Virus genome (UHGV): UHGV-0349104
Length of the DNA stretch: 44,636 nucleotides
Strand: one strand, 5' to 3'
Origin: a virus
A program made the position numbers and the translations under genes. The notes below the pieces were generated by a model. It did not search any database. It was not told where the DNA came from and was given only the letters and a program-made list of their open reading frames with translations. Every line of letters starts with the position of its first letter. Positions within the stretch are counted from its first letter, which is position 1. Positions 1 to 44,636 of this stretch are shown here, piece by piece.

Positions 1-7
1 ATTTTTT

Positions 8-202
8 TTGATGGAGCACAAAATTTCTGCTCGTCGTTTGGCTCTTGAAGCAGGTGTTACCCCGGTAACCGTAACTCGCGTGTTATCTCGTGAAAGGAAA
101 GATATGGTTTCTGCAAAAGCTGATGCGCTGCGGGATGCTATGTCTCGGATAGCCGCTCCCAATACTCCCAGCGAACCCGAAGAGGTAAGCCATGCTGACT
201 GA
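8..202 (+). CDS. small HTH DNA-binding protein (putative early regulator)
   Basis: 64-aa ORF with helix-turn-helix-like segment RRLALEAGVTPVTVTRVL; family not recognised. Confidence 0.35.
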   Translation: MMEHKISARRLALEAGVTPVTVTRVLSRERKDMVSAKADALRDAMSRIAAPNTPSEPEEVSHAD

Positions 203-473
203 TTTTTTGATCGCCATCGGCGTCGTTGTCGTCGTGGCCTTCATCTTTTCCCCGGCGCGCTAGACCCTCAGCGCATCGCCTGACCACAGCCTCGGGCGTC
301 GGGTACTCCGCGACGCGGTACGCCCTCCAGCGGATGACGCCACAGGACAGGATGCGGACGCGCCACACGGGGCCGCGCCGGGTGATAAGCAGGTGAATGG
401 CAGGGGATGACATGAGGCAAGTCTAACTCAACCCCCATTCACGTCATGATGGAAATTTTCAGAGGTTTTCAAG

Positions 474-7730: not shown

Positions 7731-8192
7731 ATGGACACCTACGCGCTCCAGCGTCAGCTTCTTCAGGCGGAACTTCTTCCAACGGAAAAGCTTGTAGGTA
7801 TGGTGCTCGCCCTACACATGGACAAGCGGACCGGAAAAATCCGCGTGCGGCAGGAAACCGTCGCGCAGGAGTGTGGCGTGTCTGCGCGAACAGTGCGCAG
7901 GGCCGTTGCTGCGCTCGTATCCTCCGGGGTGTTCGTCTCCGTGGCAACCGGACGCTCCTCGGTTTTGGTTGCTGGTTCTGGAAAGAGTACTGGAAGAGTG
8001 GACCGGCCACCGGTGTCCTATCAGACCGGTCACGGGTGTCCGCAATTGAAGCGGAAAAGGGCCCCTTGGGAGTATGATTTGGCGCACAGTACGAGGCCCG
8101 AGGAAGAGGAGAAACGAGGGCATGAAAGGTTTTTGAGAGAACAGGAAGAACGCAGGCCAAACGGGGGGTGCGACGATGGCTGCACGATTTGA
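7731..8192 (+). CDS. winged-HTH DNA-binding protein
   Basis: HTH-like ETVAQECGVSARTVRRAVAALV; precedes terminase small subunit. Confidence 0.35.
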   Translation: MDTYALQRQLLQAELLPTEKLVGMVLALHMDKRTGKIRVRQETVAQECGVSARTVRRAVAALVSSGVFVSVATGRSSVLVAGSGKSTGRVDRPPVSYQTGHGCPQLKRKRAPWEYDLAHSTRPEEEEKRGHERFLREQEERRPNGGCDDGCTI

Positions 8193-8721
8193 TTGGGAAT
8201 CCATCCGGGCCGAGTACGAAGTGGGGGCGAGCCAGTCCGATCTGTCCAAGCGGTACGGTGTGAGCCGGACGGCCATCCAGAAGCGCATCCGGGCCGAAGG
8301 CTGGGTGCAGGATATTTCCGGCACCGTGAACCGCATGGCGGAGGCCAAGGTTGCGGGCGTGGTTGCAGGCTGCAACACTCAAAAAAAGGCCGAAGCCCTG
8401 AACCGCGCCGCCGAAGCCAAGGCCGCCGTCATCACCCGCCACCAGCGGGAGTGGGATCGGCATCAGGCCCTCATTGATGAGGCGTTGTCCCTGGGCAGCT
8501 TCGAGAAGGCCAAGCTCGCCAAGATCACCGCCGAGACGATCAAGATCAGGCAGGAATGTGAGCGTAAGGTGTGGGGCATCGTGGACAAGGCCGCAGTGGA
8601 TCATACGTCGTCCGACGGCTCCATGTCTCCGCGTCCGGTCGATCTCTCTCGTCTTTCCCCGGATGAGCTGCTCCGGCTGACGCGGGAGGCGTTCAGGGAG
8701 ACGGGGCGGGATGGCGGGTGA
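8176..8721 (+). CDS. terS: terminase small subunit
   Basis: N-terminal HTH (QSDLSKRYGVSRTAIQKRIR), coiled middle; overlaps terminase large subunit start. Confidence 0.55.
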   Translation: MAARFDWESIRAEYEVGASQSDLSKRYGVSRTAIQKRIRAEGWVQDISGTVNRMAEAKVAGVVAGCNTQKKAEALNRAAEAKAAVITRHQREWDRHQALIDEALSLGSFEKAKLAKITAETIKIRQECERKVWGIVDKAAVDHTSSDGSMSPRPVDLSRLSPDELLRLTREAFRETGRDGG

Positions 8722-17909: not shown

Positions 17910-17932
17910 AGCTGCTGCCTTCCCCCCATGCG

Positions 17933-17972
17933 AAAGCCCCAACCGTTAAACATGCGGTTGGGGCTTTCTTTA
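17933..17972 (+). terminator. rho-independent terminator after capsid gene
   Basis: 10-bp stem GCCCCAACCG/CGGTTGGGGC, loop ttaaacatg, followed by TTTCTTT. Confidence 0.7.
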
Positions 17973-17984
17973 CGTAGTCAGGCG

Positions 17985-18206
17985 TCATTTTCCAAGCGGC
18001 TGTATATTTGCGTCCAGCCACATCTCGACTGCTTCCCGTACTACCTGTGAGCGTAGGATACCCCTATCCGTACATACATCGTTCAGCCGTTCCCAGACAT
18101 GATCCGGCATAGATACAGTCTTTACTGTTGCACGATTTTCAACCTTTTTTTTACGTCCAGATCCTTTACGGCGTCCACCCTGCTTTTTTTCTTGTGCATC
18201 ATTCAT
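17985..18206 (-). CDS. ribbon-helix-helix (CopG/Arc-like) DNA-binding protein
   Basis: RATVKTVSMPDHVWERLNDVCTDRGILRSQVVREAVEMWL matches RHH pattern; basic N-terminal tail; GC about 50%. Confidence 0.45.
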   Translation of the reverse strand: MNDAQEKKQGGRRKGSGRKKKVENRATVKTVSMPDHVWERLNDVCTDRGILRSQVVREAVEMWLDANIQPLGK

Positions 18207-18300
18207 TTGTTGAATCTCCCCTCATCAAAAAGCTATCTTCTTCCCACTGGCTGCGCCAGAAATACCCGTGTATCCTCTTTTCAGTAGAGACGTATTCTTT

Positions 18301-18345
18301 GACATCCTCCCCCTGAAGGGGGAGGTTTTACGGCGCGTTGGATAA
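18301..18345 (+). repeat. 45-nt GC-hairpin repeat element, copy 1 of 5
   Basis: gacATCCTCCCCCTGAAGGGGGAGGTTTTACGGCGCGTTGGATAA; perfect 8-bp stem CCTCCCCC/GGGGGAGG followed by TTTTA. Confidence 0.7.
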
Positions 18346-18362
18346 GATCGTCGATGTCTATC

Positions 18363-18863
18363 TTAGTCTTCCTCTTCATCGTCTTCCTCCGTTGCCGCTT
18401 CCAGCTTTATGAACTCGGGAAGAACCGCAATGCTGCCGCATTCGTCATCCATTTCAACAGCCTTGAAGCCGAGCTTACGGGCAAAGGCGATCCGCATGGC
18501 CTGAGCCTCCCAACTTGCGTCATCGTCGTCCATATTGAGGAGGTTTACCCAGTCTTCATCTTGATAACCAATTTTCTCTTCAACCACGGCATACCAGCAG
18601 AGATCAAAATACTTTTCGTCTATACCGCGCTCTGCCATAACTTCACGTAGAGCCGTTCCAGCAGCGCCATCTTCAAGATACGGGAGATCCTCGTTCAAGA
18701 AGATGTCCTTGATGTCTATTTCGCACTGGTAGACGTAATTTCCGTATTCCTTTGCATGTCCGTAAGTACGGGCAAAGAACACCGCGCCGAAGTTATACCC
18801 TAACCCTGTTCCTGAGTTAGAGATAGCCAGATGTTCAATCATGCTTCCGTGGTATAGCTTCAT
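18363..18863 (-). CDS. DUF3990-like protein, possible ADP-ribosyltransferase-like fold
   Basis: N-terminus MKLYHGS (H-G-S motif), Tyr-rich FFARTYGHAKEYGNYVY, acidic tail EEDDEEED; start at ATG 18863 behind RBS AAGGAGAAG. Confidence 0.45.
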   Translation of the reverse strand: MKLYHGSMIEHLAISNSGTGLGYNFGAVFFARTYGHAKEYGNYVYQCEIDIKDIFLNEDLPYLEDGAAGTALREVMAERGIDEKYFDLCWYAVVEEKIGYQDEDWVNLLNMDDDDASWEAQAMRIAFARKLGFKAVEMDDECGSIAVLPEFIKLEAATEEDDEEED

Positions 18864-18876
18864 GGTGGCTTCTCCT

Positions 18877-20007
18877 TTACCCTTTCGTTGAAAATACAAT
18901 AGCACCATTTTTTGAAAAAATAAACAATTTTTCAAAAAAAGTTTTATCGTATTTCAAGGCCGTAGCCCGGATTCGATCCGCAAAGGGGATAATATCTTCC
19001 AATTTTTCGATGTCTTCCTTTGCGTCCTTATTCTCCCCATCAAACAGTCCGACCCTCCACTGTTTTCCGTTGAAATACAGACGGCACAGAGGCTTGAGCC
19101 TGTTGTCGTCAAGAAGGATAGAGCAGTAGCTGATACTGTCCCGCATGGCTACGCGCCCCGGATCAACGGTGCCCACCAGAAGCGATTTGACAAGGTAATA
19201 CGCCTCTTTTTCTTCCTCGGTGGTGACTATACGCGAATCCTGCTCTTTTCCTTGTGGGGCATCTTCGGATTCTATCTCTACAATTTCCGGTTTCTGCTGC
19301 GTCATGGCATTTTTCAATCGGTCGTTGATGCGGTCGTTGATGAACTGGTCAAGCGCAGCGGTAAGGATTGGAGTGAAGCGATCCAGAACGTTTTGCGTGA
19401 TACGCCCATCATACGTCTGTCCGATGAAAAAGCGTGCGAAATCTTCGTGGGGCGTTTCCATCTGTTCCCCCATGATGCGCTTGAACTCACGGTTGTACTT
19501 AAGTTCGTTTGCCGCGCTCATGCAGGCGTCTCGATTAAATTTGCCTTTTGCCAGCTTGCGCAGTTCCGGAAGCAGCATTTCATCCATATCGTCAAGGACG
19601 AACTCCATATAGGGTTTGCTGTCCATTTTGTTTGCTGCTTCAAGGTCGGAATAGAACCGGTAACGGTTGCCGTCCGTCAGAATGGCAATGGGGGCTTCCG
19701 TCCCGTGGAAGTAAAGCTGGAGCTGGTTGCAGTGCTTCATGTCAAGAGACGTGCCCAAAGCCTTGCATTCCAGAAGAAGGATAGGCTTGCCGTCAACAAG
19801 AATCGCATAGTCCACGCGGGCGTCCTTATATTCGCCGATGGGGGCTGAAAATTCGGGCACGACTTCCGCAGGGTTGAAAACGTCGTATCCCAGGGCCGCG
19901 ATGAAAGGCATCACCAAGGCGTTTTTCGTGGCCTCTTCGGTCTTGAGGCTATCTCCCAGATTCTTTACCTTTTTCGACAATTCAGCAATTCTTTCCGAAA
20001 AATCCAT
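18877..20007 (-). CDS. HsdR_N-type PD-(D/E)xK nuclease-like protein (stand-alone type I R N-terminal domain)
   Basis: EEATKNALVMPFIAALGYD...ARVDYAILVDGKPILLLECKALG matches type I HsdR N-terminal nuclease-fold pattern; about 250 aa of unassigned C-terminal sequence; GC about 47%. Confidence 0.5.
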   Translation of the reverse strand: MDFSERIAELSKKVKNLGDSLKTEEATKNALVMPFIAALGYDVFNPAEVVPEFSAPIGEYKDARVDYAILVDGKPILLLECKALGTSLDMKHCNQLQLYFHGTEAPIAILTDGNRYRFYSDLEAANKMDSKPYMEFVLDDMDEMLLPELRKLAKGKFNRDACMSAANELKYNREFKRIMGEQMETPHEDFARFFIGQTYDGRITQNVLDRFTPILTAALDQFINDRINDRLKNAMTQQKPEIVEIESEDAPQGKEQDSRIVTTEEEKEAYYLVKSLLVGTVDPGRVAMRDSISYCSILLDDNRLKPLCRLYFNGKQWRVGLFDGENKDAKEDIEKLEDIIPFADRIRATALKYDKTFFEKLFIFSKNGAIVFSTKG

Positions 20008-20042
20008 GGTCCTCTCTCCCTGTTCGGATTCAAGTTAATATA

Positions 20043-20642
20043 TTAAGATTTATATATTTTCTTATAGGTTTTCCAAGAATACAGTCCGGAAAGGATAGTG
20101 AGGATTCCCCATAACAAGGCCCCATTCGTATTGGGCGGCGTTTGGAGGGCACAACTCAGCCACAATACGGCTAGCACTACTGTTATCAGCACTCCAATGA
20201 TAAGGGCAATTTTTTTAGGGGGCGTCTGAGAACGTTCATGATGTATAAGCGGGTTTGGTTCTCCACGCTCTTGGGCCAATTGGTCATCAAAAAGGTGTGC
20301 GCGGATAACCTCCATCATGGGGCTATTCACCTTTGCCAATGCCTTATTTCCATTTTTGAACTCAATAATGACGGTAGACTCAGTCGTCTTGCCTCCAGCT
20401 ACCGCACCCGCAACCGCTCCGATGCCTCCAAGCAAGACGCCGCCGACAAGTGCGCCTCCCAAAGTTCCGCCGAGCTTTTTGACCGATTCTTCATTGGCTA
20501 CTTCGCAAGAGGCAATACTGGAAAGAAAAAGTTCCTTTGCTCCAAACATTTTTGAAGAGCAACGCAACTTGTTTTTATTCTTAATGTAAATATATTCTTC
20601 TTTCCCGTAGTCCCCTGCCAGAAACTTGATGTAGGTAGCCAT
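20043..20642 (-). CDS. glycine-zipper membrane protein
   Basis: LGGTLGGALVGGVLLGGIGAVAGAVAGG glycine zipper plus two C-terminal TM helices IALIIGVLITVVLAVLWL and LLWGILTILSGLYSW; GC about 42%; TATAAT and RBS AAGGGGGA upstream. Confidence 0.5.
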   Translation of the reverse strand: MATYIKFLAGDYGKEEYIYIKNKNKLRCSSKMFGAKELFLSSIASCEVANEESVKKLGGTLGGALVGGVLLGGIGAVAGAVAGGKTTESTVIIEFKNGNKALAKVNSPMMEVIRAHLFDDQLAQERGEPNPLIHHERSQTPPKKIALIIGVLITVVLAVLWLSCALQTPPNTNGALLWGILTILSGLYSWKTYKKIYKS

Positions 20643-20704
20643 ACATCATCCCCCTTATTATAGATGAGGCTATCATGGCATAGGCCGTTCCAAAAATCCA
20701 CCGC

Positions 20705-20727
20705 CGCCGCCCTCCGCCCCGAAAGGG
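20705..20727 (+). terminator. putative small terminator hairpin
   Basis: GCCCC-GAAA-GGGGC followed by TTTTCTTTT. Confidence 0.3.
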
Positions 20728-20735
20728 GCTTTTCT

Positions 20736-20752
20736 TTTGCCTGTACGAACCT
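20736..20752 (+). promoter_or_regulatory. conserved boundary motif GAACCTTGTTCACGGTG (copy 3)
   Basis: Immediately right of island 1 and 65 nt upstream of BRO gene start. Confidence 0.5.
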
Positions 20753-20816
20753 TGTTCACGGTGTGCCCCCACGCCGCCATGCTGCATCATCTCCAAAACA
20801 CTATGGAGGTGCAGCG

Positions 20817-37116: not shown

Positions 37117-37205
37117 GTTCTCCTCCAGAAAAAGGAAAAGCCCCTTTCGGGGCTACTTCGGTTCGTGCTTGTTTGCGGGGACGCATACGGCAACTACCGT
37201 ATGAT

Positions 37206-37251
37206 TTATCCAACGCGCCGTAAAACCTCCCCCTTCAGGGGGAGGATATAA
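37206..37251 (-). repeat. 45-nt GC-hairpin repeat element, copy 2 (minus orientation)
   Basis: TTATCCAACGCGCCGTAAAACCTCCCCCTTCAGGGGGAGGATATAA; terminator-like on minus strand just downstream of the Cys-rich operon. Confidence 0.7.
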
Positions 37252-39251: not shown

Positions 39252-39332
39252 GGTTGCCCTTATTCTTAAGTTTCTTCATCAGCTTATACAGGAGGGGCGC
39301 TTTACCGTCTTCTCTGTCGCGTTCATCTTCTT

Positions 39333-39377
39333 GACATCCTCCCCCTTAAGGGAGAGGTTTTACGGCGCGTTGGATAA
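39333..39377 (+). repeat. 45-nt GC-hairpin repeat element, copy 3
   Basis: GACATCCTCCCCCTTAAGGGAGAGGTTTTACGGCGCGTTGGATAA; two substitutions against copy 1. Confidence 0.7.
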
Positions 39378-39471: not shown

Positions 39472-40449
39472 GTGATGATAAAAGATGTTTCCATTGAACT
39501 TATTCAGAAGTGTGTGAACCATTGTATTCATTGCTCTTCCTGCTCAACAGAGGAATCAGTTGCGATGCTGGATATCGACACGATGCGCCGGGTCATTCGG
39601 ACACTCCAAGGGCTGAAGGTCGAGAGGGTCTGCCTTTCCGGCGGCGAGCCGTTTCTACATCCCAATCTGTTGGAAATCGTCAGACAGTTAGTCGGCTGCG
39701 GCATGACGGTGGACGTATACTCTAGCGGGATCCTGAAAGAGGAAGGGGCACCAGAACCGTTGTCCCTTGAGCGGCTGTCCCTTATGAAGGACGCCGGATT
39801 GAGGTCACTCCTGTTTAATGTGCAGTCGGTGGACGACCCCACCTATGATCGTATCACACAGAGCAAAGGGCATTTCCCCTTGCTGCAGATGAGTATTGCC
39901 AACGCCATCGCCTGCGGAATTCGAACGGAAATTCACTTTGTCCCCATGCGGCAGAATGTACATGAAGCAGAGGCAGTGATCCGATTTGCTGAGCGGACAG
40001 GGATAGAACAGGTCAATTTTTTGAAGCTGGTTCCTCACGGGCGCGCCCAGGAAAATGCGCAGAGTCTGATGCTCAGCGATGAAGAGCTGGCGGCACTGTG
40101 TTCCCGCCTGGAGGATTTGCAGACTCAGGGAAAATCCATCCGGTTGGGATTGCCTCTGTCCATTCAGGGAAATACTCCGCCATGCCACGCGGTGAGAAAA
40201 AAATTATACATTAAATTCGACGGTTCGGTTTTTGGATGCGAGGCGTTTAAATATATTCAATTCCAGGATGAAAACGGAAGCCCCGTTTTACCCAGCAACA
40301 TCTTGGAAAAGGACATCGAGGAAATCTATTACAACTCTGAGTACTTGCAGCGGAGCCTCAAACTTGTGGAACATTATGAAGCCTGCAAGATTGGCTGCGA
40401 AAATTGTCCGGTGCAGAAGTATCTGAAAGATGGGGAGTTGTCAAAATGA
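39472..40449 (+). CDS. radical SAM enzyme with SPASM/twitch-type C-terminal Cys cluster
   Basis: CVNHCIHC (CxxxCxxC) at residues 15-22; GGEPFLHPNL SAM-binding-like; C-terminal CHAVRKKLYIKFDGSVFGC (Cx12Gx4C) and CKIGCENC; GC about 48%; RBS AAGGAGGG. Confidence 0.7.
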   Translation: MMIKDVSIELIQKCVNHCIHCSSCSTEESVAMLDIDTMRRVIRTLQGLKVERVCLSGGEPFLHPNLLEIVRQLVGCGMTVDVYSSGILKEEGAPEPLSLERLSLMKDAGLRSLLFNVQSVDDPTYDRITQSKGHFPLLQMSIANAIACGIRTEIHFVPMRQNVHEAEAVIRFAERTGIEQVNFLKLVPHGRAQENAQSLMLSDEELAALCSRLEDLQTQGKSIRLGLPLSIQGNTPPCHAVRKKLYIKFDGSVFGCEAFKYIQFQDENGSPVLPSNILEKDIEEIYYNSEYLQRSLKLVEHYEACKIGCENCPVQKYLKDGELSK

Positions 40450-44369: not shown

Positions 44370-44396
44370 GCAAAAAGTTTTCTGCCGCCACACGTT

Positions 44397-44455
44397 TTAT
44401 CCAACGCGCCGTAAAACCTCTCCCTTAAGGGGGAGGATATAAGGCGCGTTGGATA
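44397..44455 (-). repeat. 45-nt GC-hairpin repeat element, copy 4, with outer inverted arms
   Basis: ATCCAACGCGCC-GTAAAACCTCTCCCTTAAGGGGGAGGATATAA-GGCGCGTTGGAT; outer 10-bp arms CCAACGCGCC/GGCGCGTTGG. Confidence 0.65.
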
Positions 44456-44504
44456 ATGATACCAATTGGTTGCAAAAAGTCTATGCCACATATGGTATCG
44501 GTAT

Positions 44505-44555
44505 TTACCCAGCGCGCCGTAAAGCCTCGCCCTTCAGGGCGGGGATATAAGGCGC
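44505..44555 (-). repeat. 45-nt GC-hairpin repeat element, copy 5 (diverged, compensatory stem changes)
   Basis: CCCAGCGCGCCGTAAAGCCTCGCCCTTCAGGGCGGGGATATAAGGCGC; stem C-to-G paired with G-to-C; A-to-G gives T:G wobble. Confidence 0.6.
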
Positions 44556-44636
44556 ACCTTAACTGGAATTCTTGATTTTTCCGATACCATAAGGTATGAT
44601 CTGTCGCATGGAAGCACGAATCGTTTCAGAACTCCG

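Follow-up and report, generated by a model that had tools for sequence, protein, structure and literature searches.

The window analysed here is the whole 44,636-nucleotide stretch of the virus genome UHGV-0349104, and between its head and tail modules lie four open reading frames on the minus strand, all within 17985-20642. GC content is 0.479 across this cassette (0.46-0.49 for each of its genes), whereas the capsid gene has 0.611 and the window as a whole 0.566. The original prediction had described an AT-richer cassette of four minus-strand genes in an accessory hotspot beside the capsid terminator, with one copy of a hairpin repeat inside it; base composition, gene positions, the terminator hairpin found at 17932-17968, the repeat at 18299-18345 and the variable cargo of related loci all agree with that description. 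The features of the locus are:

17932-17968, no strand: bidirectional terminator hairpin with a 14-bp perfect stem, common to the capsid gene (plus) and the RHH gene (minus)
17985-18206, minus: ribbon-helix-helix (RHH) protein of 73 aa, with a basic N-terminal arm (GGRRKGSGRKKK) and weak RHH matches at residues 30-66
18207-18362, minus: deletion scar of a Cas5f/Csy2-like gene, from blastn against the related locus L001 and the junction alignment
18299-18345, minus: half copy of a palindromic repeat, core CCTCCCCC-TTCA-GGGGGAGG
18363-18863, minus: AcrIF11-family ADP-ribosyltransferase of 166 aa, with His5 (MKLYHGS), D140/E141 (EMDDECG) and an acidic tail
18864-18954, minus: acr promoter and leader, with inverted repeat, promoter-like hexamers and leader TTTTCAACGAAAGGGTAAAGGAG
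18908-18939: perfect 12-nt inverted repeat, TTTTTTGAAAAA-N8-TTTTTCAAAAAA, AT-rich, putative RHH operator
18877-20007, minus: stand-alone HsdR_N-type PD-(D/E)xK protein (phrog_4225, 8.9e-114)
20043-20642, minus: PH_gly_zipper membrane protein of 199 aa; a glycine zipper is inserted in its PH-like domain, and two transmembrane (TM) helices lie at the C-terminus
20643-20813, no strand: divergent intergenic region between the glycine-zipper gene (minus) and the BRO-N gene (plus)

The terminator hairpin forms the right boundary of the cassette. Within the divergent intergenic region there is a GC hairpin at 20716-20729, and the BRO-N gene probably starts at 20814. Bilophila wadsworthia is the recorded source of all four proteins and of the capsid protein, on contigs of up to 3.4 Mb. 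The glycine-zipper and HsdR_N genes (18877-20642) are referred to below as Module A, and the AcrIF11-family and RHH genes with their promoter (17985-18954) as Module B.

The enzyme gene of Module B begins at MKLYHGS, which is its true start and is preceded by a good ribosome binding site. Judged by sequence, its product belongs to the AcrIF11 anti-CRISPR family: it matches the equivalog model NCBIfam NF052490 at E 1.5e-30 over model positions 1-140 of 142 (107 bits vs. a curated cutoff of 50), its precomputed Pfam family is PF26151, and phmmer aligns it to the AcrIF11 structures 8DWQ (3.9e-6) and 6KYF. In the alignment to AcrIF11Pae2 (8DWQ), D140 and E141 fall on D146 and E147, which are the catalytic pair (PMC12421852). 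Both residues, along with H5, Q121, G132 and G143, do not vary among the 30 sequences of a family alignment that includes 8DWQ, and there the H-G-S motif noticed earlier supplies the NAD-binding histidine. The label that first went with this motif, DUF3990-like, was lost, as Pfam gave no DUF3990 match at E ≤ 0.1; the NAD-using fold and the acidic tail were retained, and the sole Pfam match in the search was a weak one to ART-PolyVal (E 0.0026), which points towards a diphtheria-toxin-like ART fold. A single-sequence AF2 model for prediction of the ART fold had a pLDDT of 41.8, which is unusably low.

The characterised AcrIF11 proteins of Pseudomonas phages and plasmids (Pae1, 6KYF; Pae2, 8DWQ) are similar in size to the window protein and share with it an N-terminal M-x-L-[YF]-H-[GT]-S and a C-terminal G-[FY]-x-[AG]-V-x-M-x-D-E-x-G containing the catalytic D-E, and the setting in a variable anti-defence locus of a temperate phage is also alike. 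However, identity to the characterised members, Pae2 included, is only ~27%, the acidic C-terminal tail (EEDDEEED) is specific to the Bilophila lineage, and a Y replaces the H of the family S-H-G motif, a histidine that Pae2 also lacks. The host is a gut member of the Desulfovibrionaceae, and the regulator is an RHH protein rather than an HTH Aca. An identical copy of the protein is indexed in 577 blocks of a public assembly collection; a search of genome contigs gave, among the matches listed, only a 39%-identical Bacteroidales fragment, and PLSDB plasmids gave no match. The family also occurs as a domain in giant polyvalent proteins, in which many of its 143 representatives at 50% identity are embedded.

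In most relatives, a Cas5f/Csy2-like gene of 463 aa lies between acrIF11 and the RHH gene (Pfam Cas_Csy2, 41 bits vs. a GA of 25; NCBI name type I-F Csy2), and its product carries a ~200-aa N-terminal extension. The window retains the first ~13 and last ~33 codons of this gene, with a remnant ORF of 32 aa. In blastn, window positions 18954-18341 correspond to 5909-6523 of L001 and 18298-17802 to 7777-8273, and the half-copy repeat at 18299-18345 takes the place of 1253 bp of the gene. The repeat, a palindrome of ~61 nt in its full form, has four further copies elsewhere in the window (0 expected by chance). It lacks a U-tract in the mRNA sense and so is unlikely to terminate the acr-RHH transcript. 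No Rfam family matched it or any other part of the window. The possibility of a CRISPR-repeat mimic or solitary repeat unit was rejected on the grounds of its palindromic form, its irregular spacing and the lack of an Rfam CRISPR-DR match, and the repeat is treated here as a REP-like or terminator-like element. A mini CRISPR array was likewise considered for 60-nt tandem repeats that precede a divergent csy2-like gene in locus L072; the apparent spacers are conserved between contigs and palindromic, and these are probably a regulatory repeat.

The Cas5f-like partner has been lost repeatedly and is therefore dispensable, and because it is lost here, the evidence for a type I-F connection comes from the relatives rather than the window. 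A known system that comes close is AcrIB3, a viral Cas5 homologue that is an anti-CRISPR (bioRxiv 10.1101/2023.06.24.545427). The sister loci resemble it in having a Cas5f/Csy2-like protein within the acr operon, although that protein is of type I-F rather than I-B and bears the N-terminal extension, and the window keeps only the scar of the gene.

These relatives also bear on what the enzyme modifies. It could be a counter-defence enzyme aimed at something other than type I-F Cascade, such as another CRISPR type, an immune protein or a host factor. The diversity of the family, the low identity to characterised members and the Bilophila-lineage tail all leave room for this, and the helical specificity region of the family is poorly conserved, so that the target could differ. 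Moreover, literature searches yielded no report of a type I-F system in B. wadsworthia, and a metagenome scan with a csy2-like profile, aimed at a host I-F cas operon, returned only mobile-element copies. We nevertheless consider a different target unlikely, as the operons of most relatives place the Cas5f/Csy2-like gene directly next to the enzyme gene and NF052490 is of the "equivalog" model type. Type I-F Cascade is thus the target we favour.

Matches of the 73-aa protein to RHH families are all weak and converge on residues 30-66. They include Pfam RHH_1/RHH_3 (E ~0.02; 15.4 bits, below the GA of 20.5), a PHROG repressor (1.3e-4), NCBIfam aCcr1 (4.5e-4) and the PDB entry CopG 7BY2 (6e-3). 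The sole match in a phage collection, a Sulfolobus virus, was at chance level. Comparison of about 40 related loci from Bilophila phages shows the RHH gene at a fixed place beside the capsid gene, with changing cargo upstream of it (AcrIF11, Cas5f/Csy2-like, GNAT, 56-aa, 103-aa and BRO genes). The RHH family is narrow, with relatives found at 81% identity or above plus one at 33%, which keeps this place downstream of a csy2-like gene on a different mobile element. The second RHH protein of related acr operons shows no similarity to that of the window.

The inverted repeat at 18908-18939 shares positions with both the promoter-like hexamers and an extended -10 (TGcTATTGT), and it occurs once in the window (0 expected). 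It was found in all loci seen with the RHH protein of the window, including upstream of an inserted GNAT gene. In loci without this protein the repeat is absent, and variants of TTGACA-17-CATAGT with the same leader are present instead; the exception is L054, which has the repeat and whose contig ends before the RHH position. The co-occurrence of repeat and RHH protein was seen in close relatives (at least 93% identity) and may reflect shared descent.

Both traits by which an Aca gene is judged are present at the locus, namely a small DNA-binding protein in the acr operon that is kept while the cargo varies, and an inverted repeat over the acr promoter. An RHH anchor, variable cargo and a repeat over the acr promoter together form the anatomy of an acr-aca operon. 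The nearest parallel is Aca14 of Pasteurella multocida, an RHH Aca acting as repressor both of its own operon and of one encoding AcrIF6 and a Cas5f homologue (PMC13551039). Compared by description, the two cases agree in that the RHH protein is small (66 vs. 73 aa) and belongs to an anti-defence operon, the promoter is overlapped by an inverted repeat rich in AT, and the neighbouring cargo contains a type I-F Acr and a Cas5f homologue; a difference is the narrowness of the family to which the window protein belongs. Module B is therefore probably an acr-aca-type anti-CRISPR operon of an AcrIF11-family enzyme and the 73-aa RHH protein, in which we infer the latter to be an Aca-type autorepressor with the 18908-18939 repeat as its operator.

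An enzyme gene beside a small DNA-binding protein might also suggest a type II toxin-antitoxin pair for abortive infection or prophage maintenance. RHH antitoxins are common, the window protein weakly matches CopG-type regulators and MazE6, ART toxins exist, and the H-G-S motif of the enzyme supplies the NAD-binding histidine. However, the obligate adjacency of such a pair is broken by the 463-aa gene between ART and RHH in most relatives, and in L042, L051 and L052 the ART is present and no other query gene, RHH included, was detected within 6 kb. The RHH protein has a basic N-terminal arm but lacks an extension for toxin binding at its C-terminus, the cargo nearby, being Cas5f-like, relates to CRISPR, and the ART scores well above its AcrIF11 cutoff. 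With these points taken together, a toxin-antitoxin pair seems very unlikely, and an acr-aca operon remains the preferred reading of Module B.

The two modules separate freely in relatives. In loci L034-L038 the glycine-zipper/HsdR_N pair occurs where acr and RHH are lacking, the reverse holds for L007, L045, L057 and L062, and in L046 HsdR_N was lost through an internal deletion. Between Module A and Module B, L001 carries a terminator as well as a separate promoter. The window is a reduced variant, in which the Cas5f-like gene is replaced by the hairpin repeat and the BRO/103-aa segment is missing. PADLOC (PADLOC-DB v2) found no defence system, giving only weak partial matches to a CorA-like model (1.9e-4) and to the HSDR_N part of MTase_I and IIG models (~2-5e-3). 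INPHARED phages, searched at the DNA level and by tblastn with the region, the AcrIF11-family protein and the glycine-zipper protein, gave no matches.

The four folds named in the original prediction (a nuclease fold of HsdR_N type, an NAD-using enzyme, here an ADP-ribosyltransferase, a glycine-zipper protein with two C-terminal TM helices, and an RHH regulator, on which several sub-threshold matches agree) have stood up, but their union into one unnamed defence or toxin system has not. Adjacency on one strand, low GC and the hotspot position speak for a single system of nuclease, NAD-using toxin, membrane effector and RHH control, and in the window the terminator between the modules is deleted, so that they may be co-transcribed here. 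However, the genes separate in relatives, HsdR_N homologues of other phyla have unrelated neighbours, and the modules of L001 are parted by a terminator and a promoter; the supposed toxin belongs to a named anti-CRISPR family and would thus act in counter-defence. For the four-gene unit the outcome is the one that the original prediction had named as refuting it. The comparative data already largely refute a single system, which we regard as highly improbable. The cassette is instead likely to be a mosaic accessory island of a temperate B. wadsworthia phage, made of two independent modules.

In Module B, a promoter under the AT-rich perfect inverted repeat would drive the AcrIF11-family gene and then the RHH gene. 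By analogy with characterised AcrIF11, the enzyme would act early in infection, transferring ADP-ribose from NAD+ to a subunit of the host's type I-F Cascade (Csy). The residue modified in Pseudomonas is N250 of Cas8f, and an analogous modification here would block target-DNA binding. An RHH dimer would then bind the inverted repeat and silence the strong acr promoter, which is how Aca proteins work, the RHH-type Aca14 among them. Two deletions account for the present arrangement. The first removed the Cas5f/Csy2-like gene between acr and RHH, leaving the palindromic repeat in its place, and the second removed the BRO-N/103-aa segment with its terminator, fusing the HsdR_N 3′ end to the acr promoter region.

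Module A opens with the glycine-zipper gene, followed by the HsdR_N gene. The 199-aa membrane protein (precomputed Pfam PF27000, PH_gly_zipper) has its glycine zipper at residues 57-84, and of its two TM helices the one at 144-166 is strong and the one at ~174-190 weaker. In the HsdR_N protein, a helical region lies between the N-terminal PD-(D/E)xK nuclease domain and a small C-terminal domain of alpha/beta type; residues 1-351 are native, and the last 25 aa are a read-through into the acr promoter region that was created by the deletion, the relatives being 356 aa long. Its nuclease domain is in common with type I and IIG restriction enzymes (3H1T; BpuSI, 3S1S; DrdV, 7LO5). However, the protein lacks a helicase/translocase domain, and neither the window cassette nor any of 40+ related loci yielded a gene for a methyltransferase or specificity subunit. 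The adjacency of the pair is kept in L038 at another genomic position, at 57% and 40% identity, and in another phage the pair sits in the tail module. Elsewhere, HsdR_N homologues stand alone, beside prophage repressors or tRNA/tmRNA sites.

Module A is a separate two-gene moron; our best guess, held with low confidence, is that its nuclease-like protein is expressed from the prophage and would act against competing incoming DNA. A possible analogy is SNIPE (PD-lambda-1), a nuclease that sits in the membrane and cuts phage DNA as it is injected (PMC13190303). Membrane anchoring and a nuclease are common to both, and a PH domain occurs in some homologues of SNIPE; SNIPE differs in being one polypeptide of DUF4041 and GIY-YIG, whereas the window has two proteins and a PD-(D/E)xK fold. 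A bolder proposal, quite unlikely in our estimation, is that the pair would be a new two-component exclusion system, a split SNIPE analogue in which the membrane protein positions or gates the HsdR_N nuclease at the inner membrane, with the stand-alone HsdR_N family as widespread anti-phage nucleases that work as one gene or a few, and that a new Aca family, in control of an AcrIF11/Cas5f-mimic operon in gut Desulfovibrionaceae, would have the RHH protein as its first member.

The enzymatic anti-CRISPR AcrIF11, so far studied in Pseudomonas, is thus carried with an RHH-type regulator by prophages that are common in B. wadsworthia, a human-gut pathobiont. The relatives provide a natural series of operons, with or without the Cas5f mimic or GNAT and with alternative promoter/operator modules, that could be used for studying acr operon regulation and decay. 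The glycine-zipper/HsdR_N pair and the stand-alone HsdR_N family are candidates for prophage-encoded immunity, which bears on phage-host dynamics and on phage-based manipulation of Bilophila. The stand-alone family spans more than 5,800 clusters and many phyla, with a prophage repressor as the usual neighbour. A conserved gene-free stretch 3′ of its chromosomal members was considered and discarded, the sequences being unrelated to one another. Downstream of one such member lies a tmRNA gene, and near another there are a tRNA-Phe gene and BRO-like remnants.

The low-GC island predicted at 17950-20730 is real and was accurately described: the cassette within it (17985-20642) has a GC content of 0.479, with its four genes at 0.46-0.49, lower than the 0.611 of the adjacent capsid gene and the 0.566 of the window as a whole, and all four minus-strand open reading frames were confirmed. 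The original prediction took these genes for a single candidate defence or toxin system. In related loci of other contigs and genomes they are separable, the glycine-zipper and HsdR_N genes occurring together where acr and RHH (ribbon-helix-helix) genes are absent (L034-L037), and the presumed toxin belongs to the AcrIF11 family of anti-CRISPR ADP-ribosyltransferases (ARTs). On both counts, the four genes do not form a single system. Judged by sequence, the cassette divides into a right half, an anti-CRISPR operon of the acr-aca type with a new AcrIF11-family member, and a left half, a two-gene moron independent of it.

20043-20642, minus strand: glycine-zipper protein, 199 aa
18877-20007, minus strand: HsdR_N protein, 376 aa
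18908-18939: perfect 12-nt inverted repeat TTTTTTGAAAAA-N8-TTTTTCAAAAAA, directly upstream of acrIF11
18363-18863, minus strand: AcrIF11-family protein, 166 aa
17985-18206, minus strand: RHH protein, 73 aa

Against the NCBIfam equivalog "AcrIF11 family anti-CRISPR ADP-ribosyltransferase" (cutoff 50) the 166-aa protein scores 107 bits; it is also assigned to Pfam PF26151, and phmmer aligned it with both solved AcrIF11 proteins, 8DWQ (3.9e-6) and 6KYF. Its D140/E141 align with D146/E147, the catalytic residues of AcrIF11Pae2 (PMC12421852). An exhaustive HMMER search yielded 143 representatives of the family, and in a 30-member alignment H5, Q121, G132, D140, E141 and G143 are invariant; together with the family match, this identifies the previously noted H-G-S motif as containing the NAD-site histidine of an ART. 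The DUF3990-like label must be dropped, as the protein has no DUF3990 match, and of the proposed NAD-using toxin the guess at the fold survives while the toxin function yields to the equivalog assignment. The open reading frame as listed begins further upstream (190 aa); the MKLYHGS start that gives 166 aa is preceded by a good AAGGAG ribosome binding site. In the assembly collection the exact protein occurs in 577 indexed blocks. Bilophila wadsworthia is the recorded source of identical or nearly identical versions of the four cassette proteins and of the capsid protein, in contigs of up to 3.4 Mb; assemblies of this species with the prophage include those that contain WP_417023523.1 or WP_308771167.1. 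The putative target of the enzyme would be a predicted type I-F system of Bilophila, and the inverted repeat at 18908-18939 is the putative binding site of the RHH protein.

Sub-threshold matches of the 73-aa protein agree with one another, all falling on residues 30-66 (Pfam RHH_1/RHH_3, a PHROG repressor, NCBIfam aCcr1, and the CopG regulator 7BY2 in the PDB). Wherever it occurs among the approximately 50 related loci mapped, its gene occupies the capsid-proximal end while the upstream cargo differs, and such a fixed position beside variable cargo is the hallmark of acr-aca loci. On another element, which has a serine recombinase, a homologue with 33% identity (BLASTP 2e-10) likewise follows a csy2-like gene, itself 74% identical. 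The protein is probably a new RHH-type anti-CRISPR-associated repressor (Aca). A direct precedent is Aca14 of Pasteurella multocida, accession HDR1349883.1 / WP_005725436.1, an RHH Aca that acts on promoter-overlapping inverted repeats to repress both the operon it belongs to and a neighbouring one with genes for AcrIF6 and a Cas5f homologue (PMC13551039). The RHH and capsid genes share a terminator, a hairpin with a perfect 14-bp stem at 17932-17968. In L018, L050 and L055, another, unrelated RHH protein of 63 aa is encoded at the operon 5′ end.

The inverted repeat upstream of acrIF11 occurs once in the window and overlaps promoter-like hexamers with an extended -10. It stands at the operon 5′ end in every locus seen with this RHH, L039 and L041 included, where a GNAT gene has been inserted downstream of it. 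In loci that lack this RHH, the promoter is TTGACA-17-CATAGT, the leader, GTGTTTTCAACGAAAGGG, is the same and the inverted repeat is absent; the exception is L054, where the repeat is present and the contig ends before the RHH position. This co-occurrence is as predicted for an operator-repressor pair, with the caveat that the loci are closely related.

The commonest layout in relatives, from tail genes to capsid, is BRO-N(-) / PH_gly_zipper - HsdR_N / BRO-N - 103 aa / [GNAT - 56 aa] - AcrIF11 - 463-aa Csy2-like - RHH / capsid(-). Compared with the related locus L001, the window lacks two segments (L001 4146-5908 and 6524-7776) and is a reduced variant. The first carried BRO-N and the 103-aa gene together with their terminator; an 11-nt microhomology marks its junction. 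Its loss replaced the last 5 HsdR_N codons with 25 read-through codons of the acr promoter region, so that window 18877-18954 is a non-native 3′ end in which codon 351 is fused to that region, adding 25 foreign residues; the native protein has 356 aa. In L001 the terminator precedes the acr promoter, making the acr operon a separate transcription unit there; with that terminator deleted, transcription of the glycine-zipper/HsdR_N pair could continue into acrIF11 in the window phage. The second segment comprised most of the csy2-like gene; a 42-nt hairpin half-element now fills precisely this gap, and the left junction has a 5-nt microhomology (TTATC).

L001 6485-7876, also L039-L079: 463-aa Cas5f/Csy2-like gene, between acrIF11 and RHH in most sister phages (scar at window 18207-18379)
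L018 3268-3624 and 3077-3247, minus strand; L039/L041 5431-5975: GNAT gene and 56-aa open reading frame

The 118-aa GNAT acetyltransferase (Pfam Acetyltransf_7/_1 above GA) and the 56-aa frame lie just upstream of acrIF11 in some sister operons. Since AcrVA5 is a GNAT, the acetyltransferase is a possible second enzymatic anti-CRISPR. The 463-aa protein, of which WP_417023524.1 is an example, exceeds the Pfam Cas_Csy2 threshold (41 bits, GA 25), is named type I-F Csy2 by NCBI, and has an N-terminal extension of ~200 aa and weak PDB matches to Cas8/Csy2 chains of 640-695 aa. It is a candidate Cas-mimic anti-CRISPR; AcrIB3 is a viral Cas5 homologue that acts as an Acr (bioRxiv 10.1101/2023.06.24.545427). 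At least four independent events removed or disrupted the gene of the 463-aa protein: the deletion in the window; one in L046, which has different breakpoints, lacks the hairpin, and has also lost HsdR_N through an internal deletion; the reduction to a 35-aa remnant in L018/L050; and a frameshift in L014.

In the left half, residues 57-84 of the 199-aa protein (precomputed Pfam PF27000, PH_gly_zipper) form a glycine zipper, and the protein has two transmembrane segments, a strong one at 144-166 and another that is weaker. For the 376-aa protein the Pfam match is HSDR_N (4.8e-13), and PHROG 4225 "endonuclease" covers its full length (8.9e-114); D66 and E80-C81-K82 are invariant in a 40-sequence alignment. 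In its AF2 model (pLDDT 85) the nuclease fold is N-terminal, and after it come a long helical region, a linker that is disordered and, at the C-terminus, a small alpha/beta domain. It is not a type I R subunit, having no helicase and, in the window cassette and 40+ related loci, no methyltransferase or specificity partner. The two genes are also adjacent inside a tail/baseplate module in L038 (57% and 40% identity), a different genomic position, which indicates that they move as a unit. Full-length HsdR_N homologues form more than 5,800 clusters and stand alone in several settings, so pairing is not a property of the family. Homologues in L010-L013 and L024-L033 (36-75% identity) directly adjoin a CI-type repressor or integrase in Fusobacterium, Enterococcus and Corynebacterium phages; in Desulfovibrionaceae chromosomes one has a tmRNA gene alongside and another a tRNA-Phe gene nearby. 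Lone homologues also lie beside the CI-type repressor or integrase of a metagenomic prophage, and in an island with HicAB and an "acr candidate" in Porphyromonas phages. The family is very large, uncharacterised and linked to lysogeny modules. DUF4236 proteins share the C-terminal transmembrane part of the glycine-zipper protein; at L007 3466-4134, a 67-aa frame and a 151-aa DUF4236 protein, 43-45% identical in that part, replace the whole pair, which resembles a swap of domains on a membrane anchor common to both. Neither the glycine-zipper nor the HsdR_N protein has a PADLOC model. Because the cargo is linked to lysogeny and its nuclease site is intact, one may speculate that the nuclease might act against incoming DNA, and SNIPE offers an analogy for the membrane-nuclease combination (PMC13190303).

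The window carries five copies of a palindromic hairpin repeat, against a chance expectation of zero.

18299-18345: hairpin-repeat copy
37205-37251: hairpin-repeat copy
39331-39377: hairpin-repeat copy
44396-44456: hairpin-repeat copy
44504-44550: hairpin-repeat copy

The full form, ~61 nt, is TTATCCAACGCGCC-GTAAAACCTCYCCC-TTMA-GGGRGAGGATATAA-GGCGCGTTGGATAA; in one copy the stem carries compensatory changes (CCTCGCCC/GGGCGGGG), and the half copies terminate with TATAA(T/G) or TGTCAA. The repeat has no match in Rfam, is found in 8 IMG/VR contigs, and is a candidate REP-like element, terminator or protein site. One copy lies just upstream of a gene for a radical SAM/SPASM-domain protein at 39472-40449 (Pfam Radical_SAM 8.4e-17, SPASM 1.7e-4). 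The IMG/VR contig L016 runs from window 44577-44636 straight into window 1-385, joining position 44636 to 1, and the window is thus a complete, circularly permuted 44.6-kb phage genome; beside structural genes it encodes CII-like, DnaB, ERF and SSB proteins. L072 7630-7895 (also L073 and L076) holds a tandem array of five units of ~60 nt whose hairpin core is CCCCAC-GGAT-GTGGGG, directly upstream of a divergent csy2-like and RHH pair on a non-phage element. Their likeness to a CRISPR array is probably superficial, as the inter-repeat segments are palindromic and conserved between contigs.
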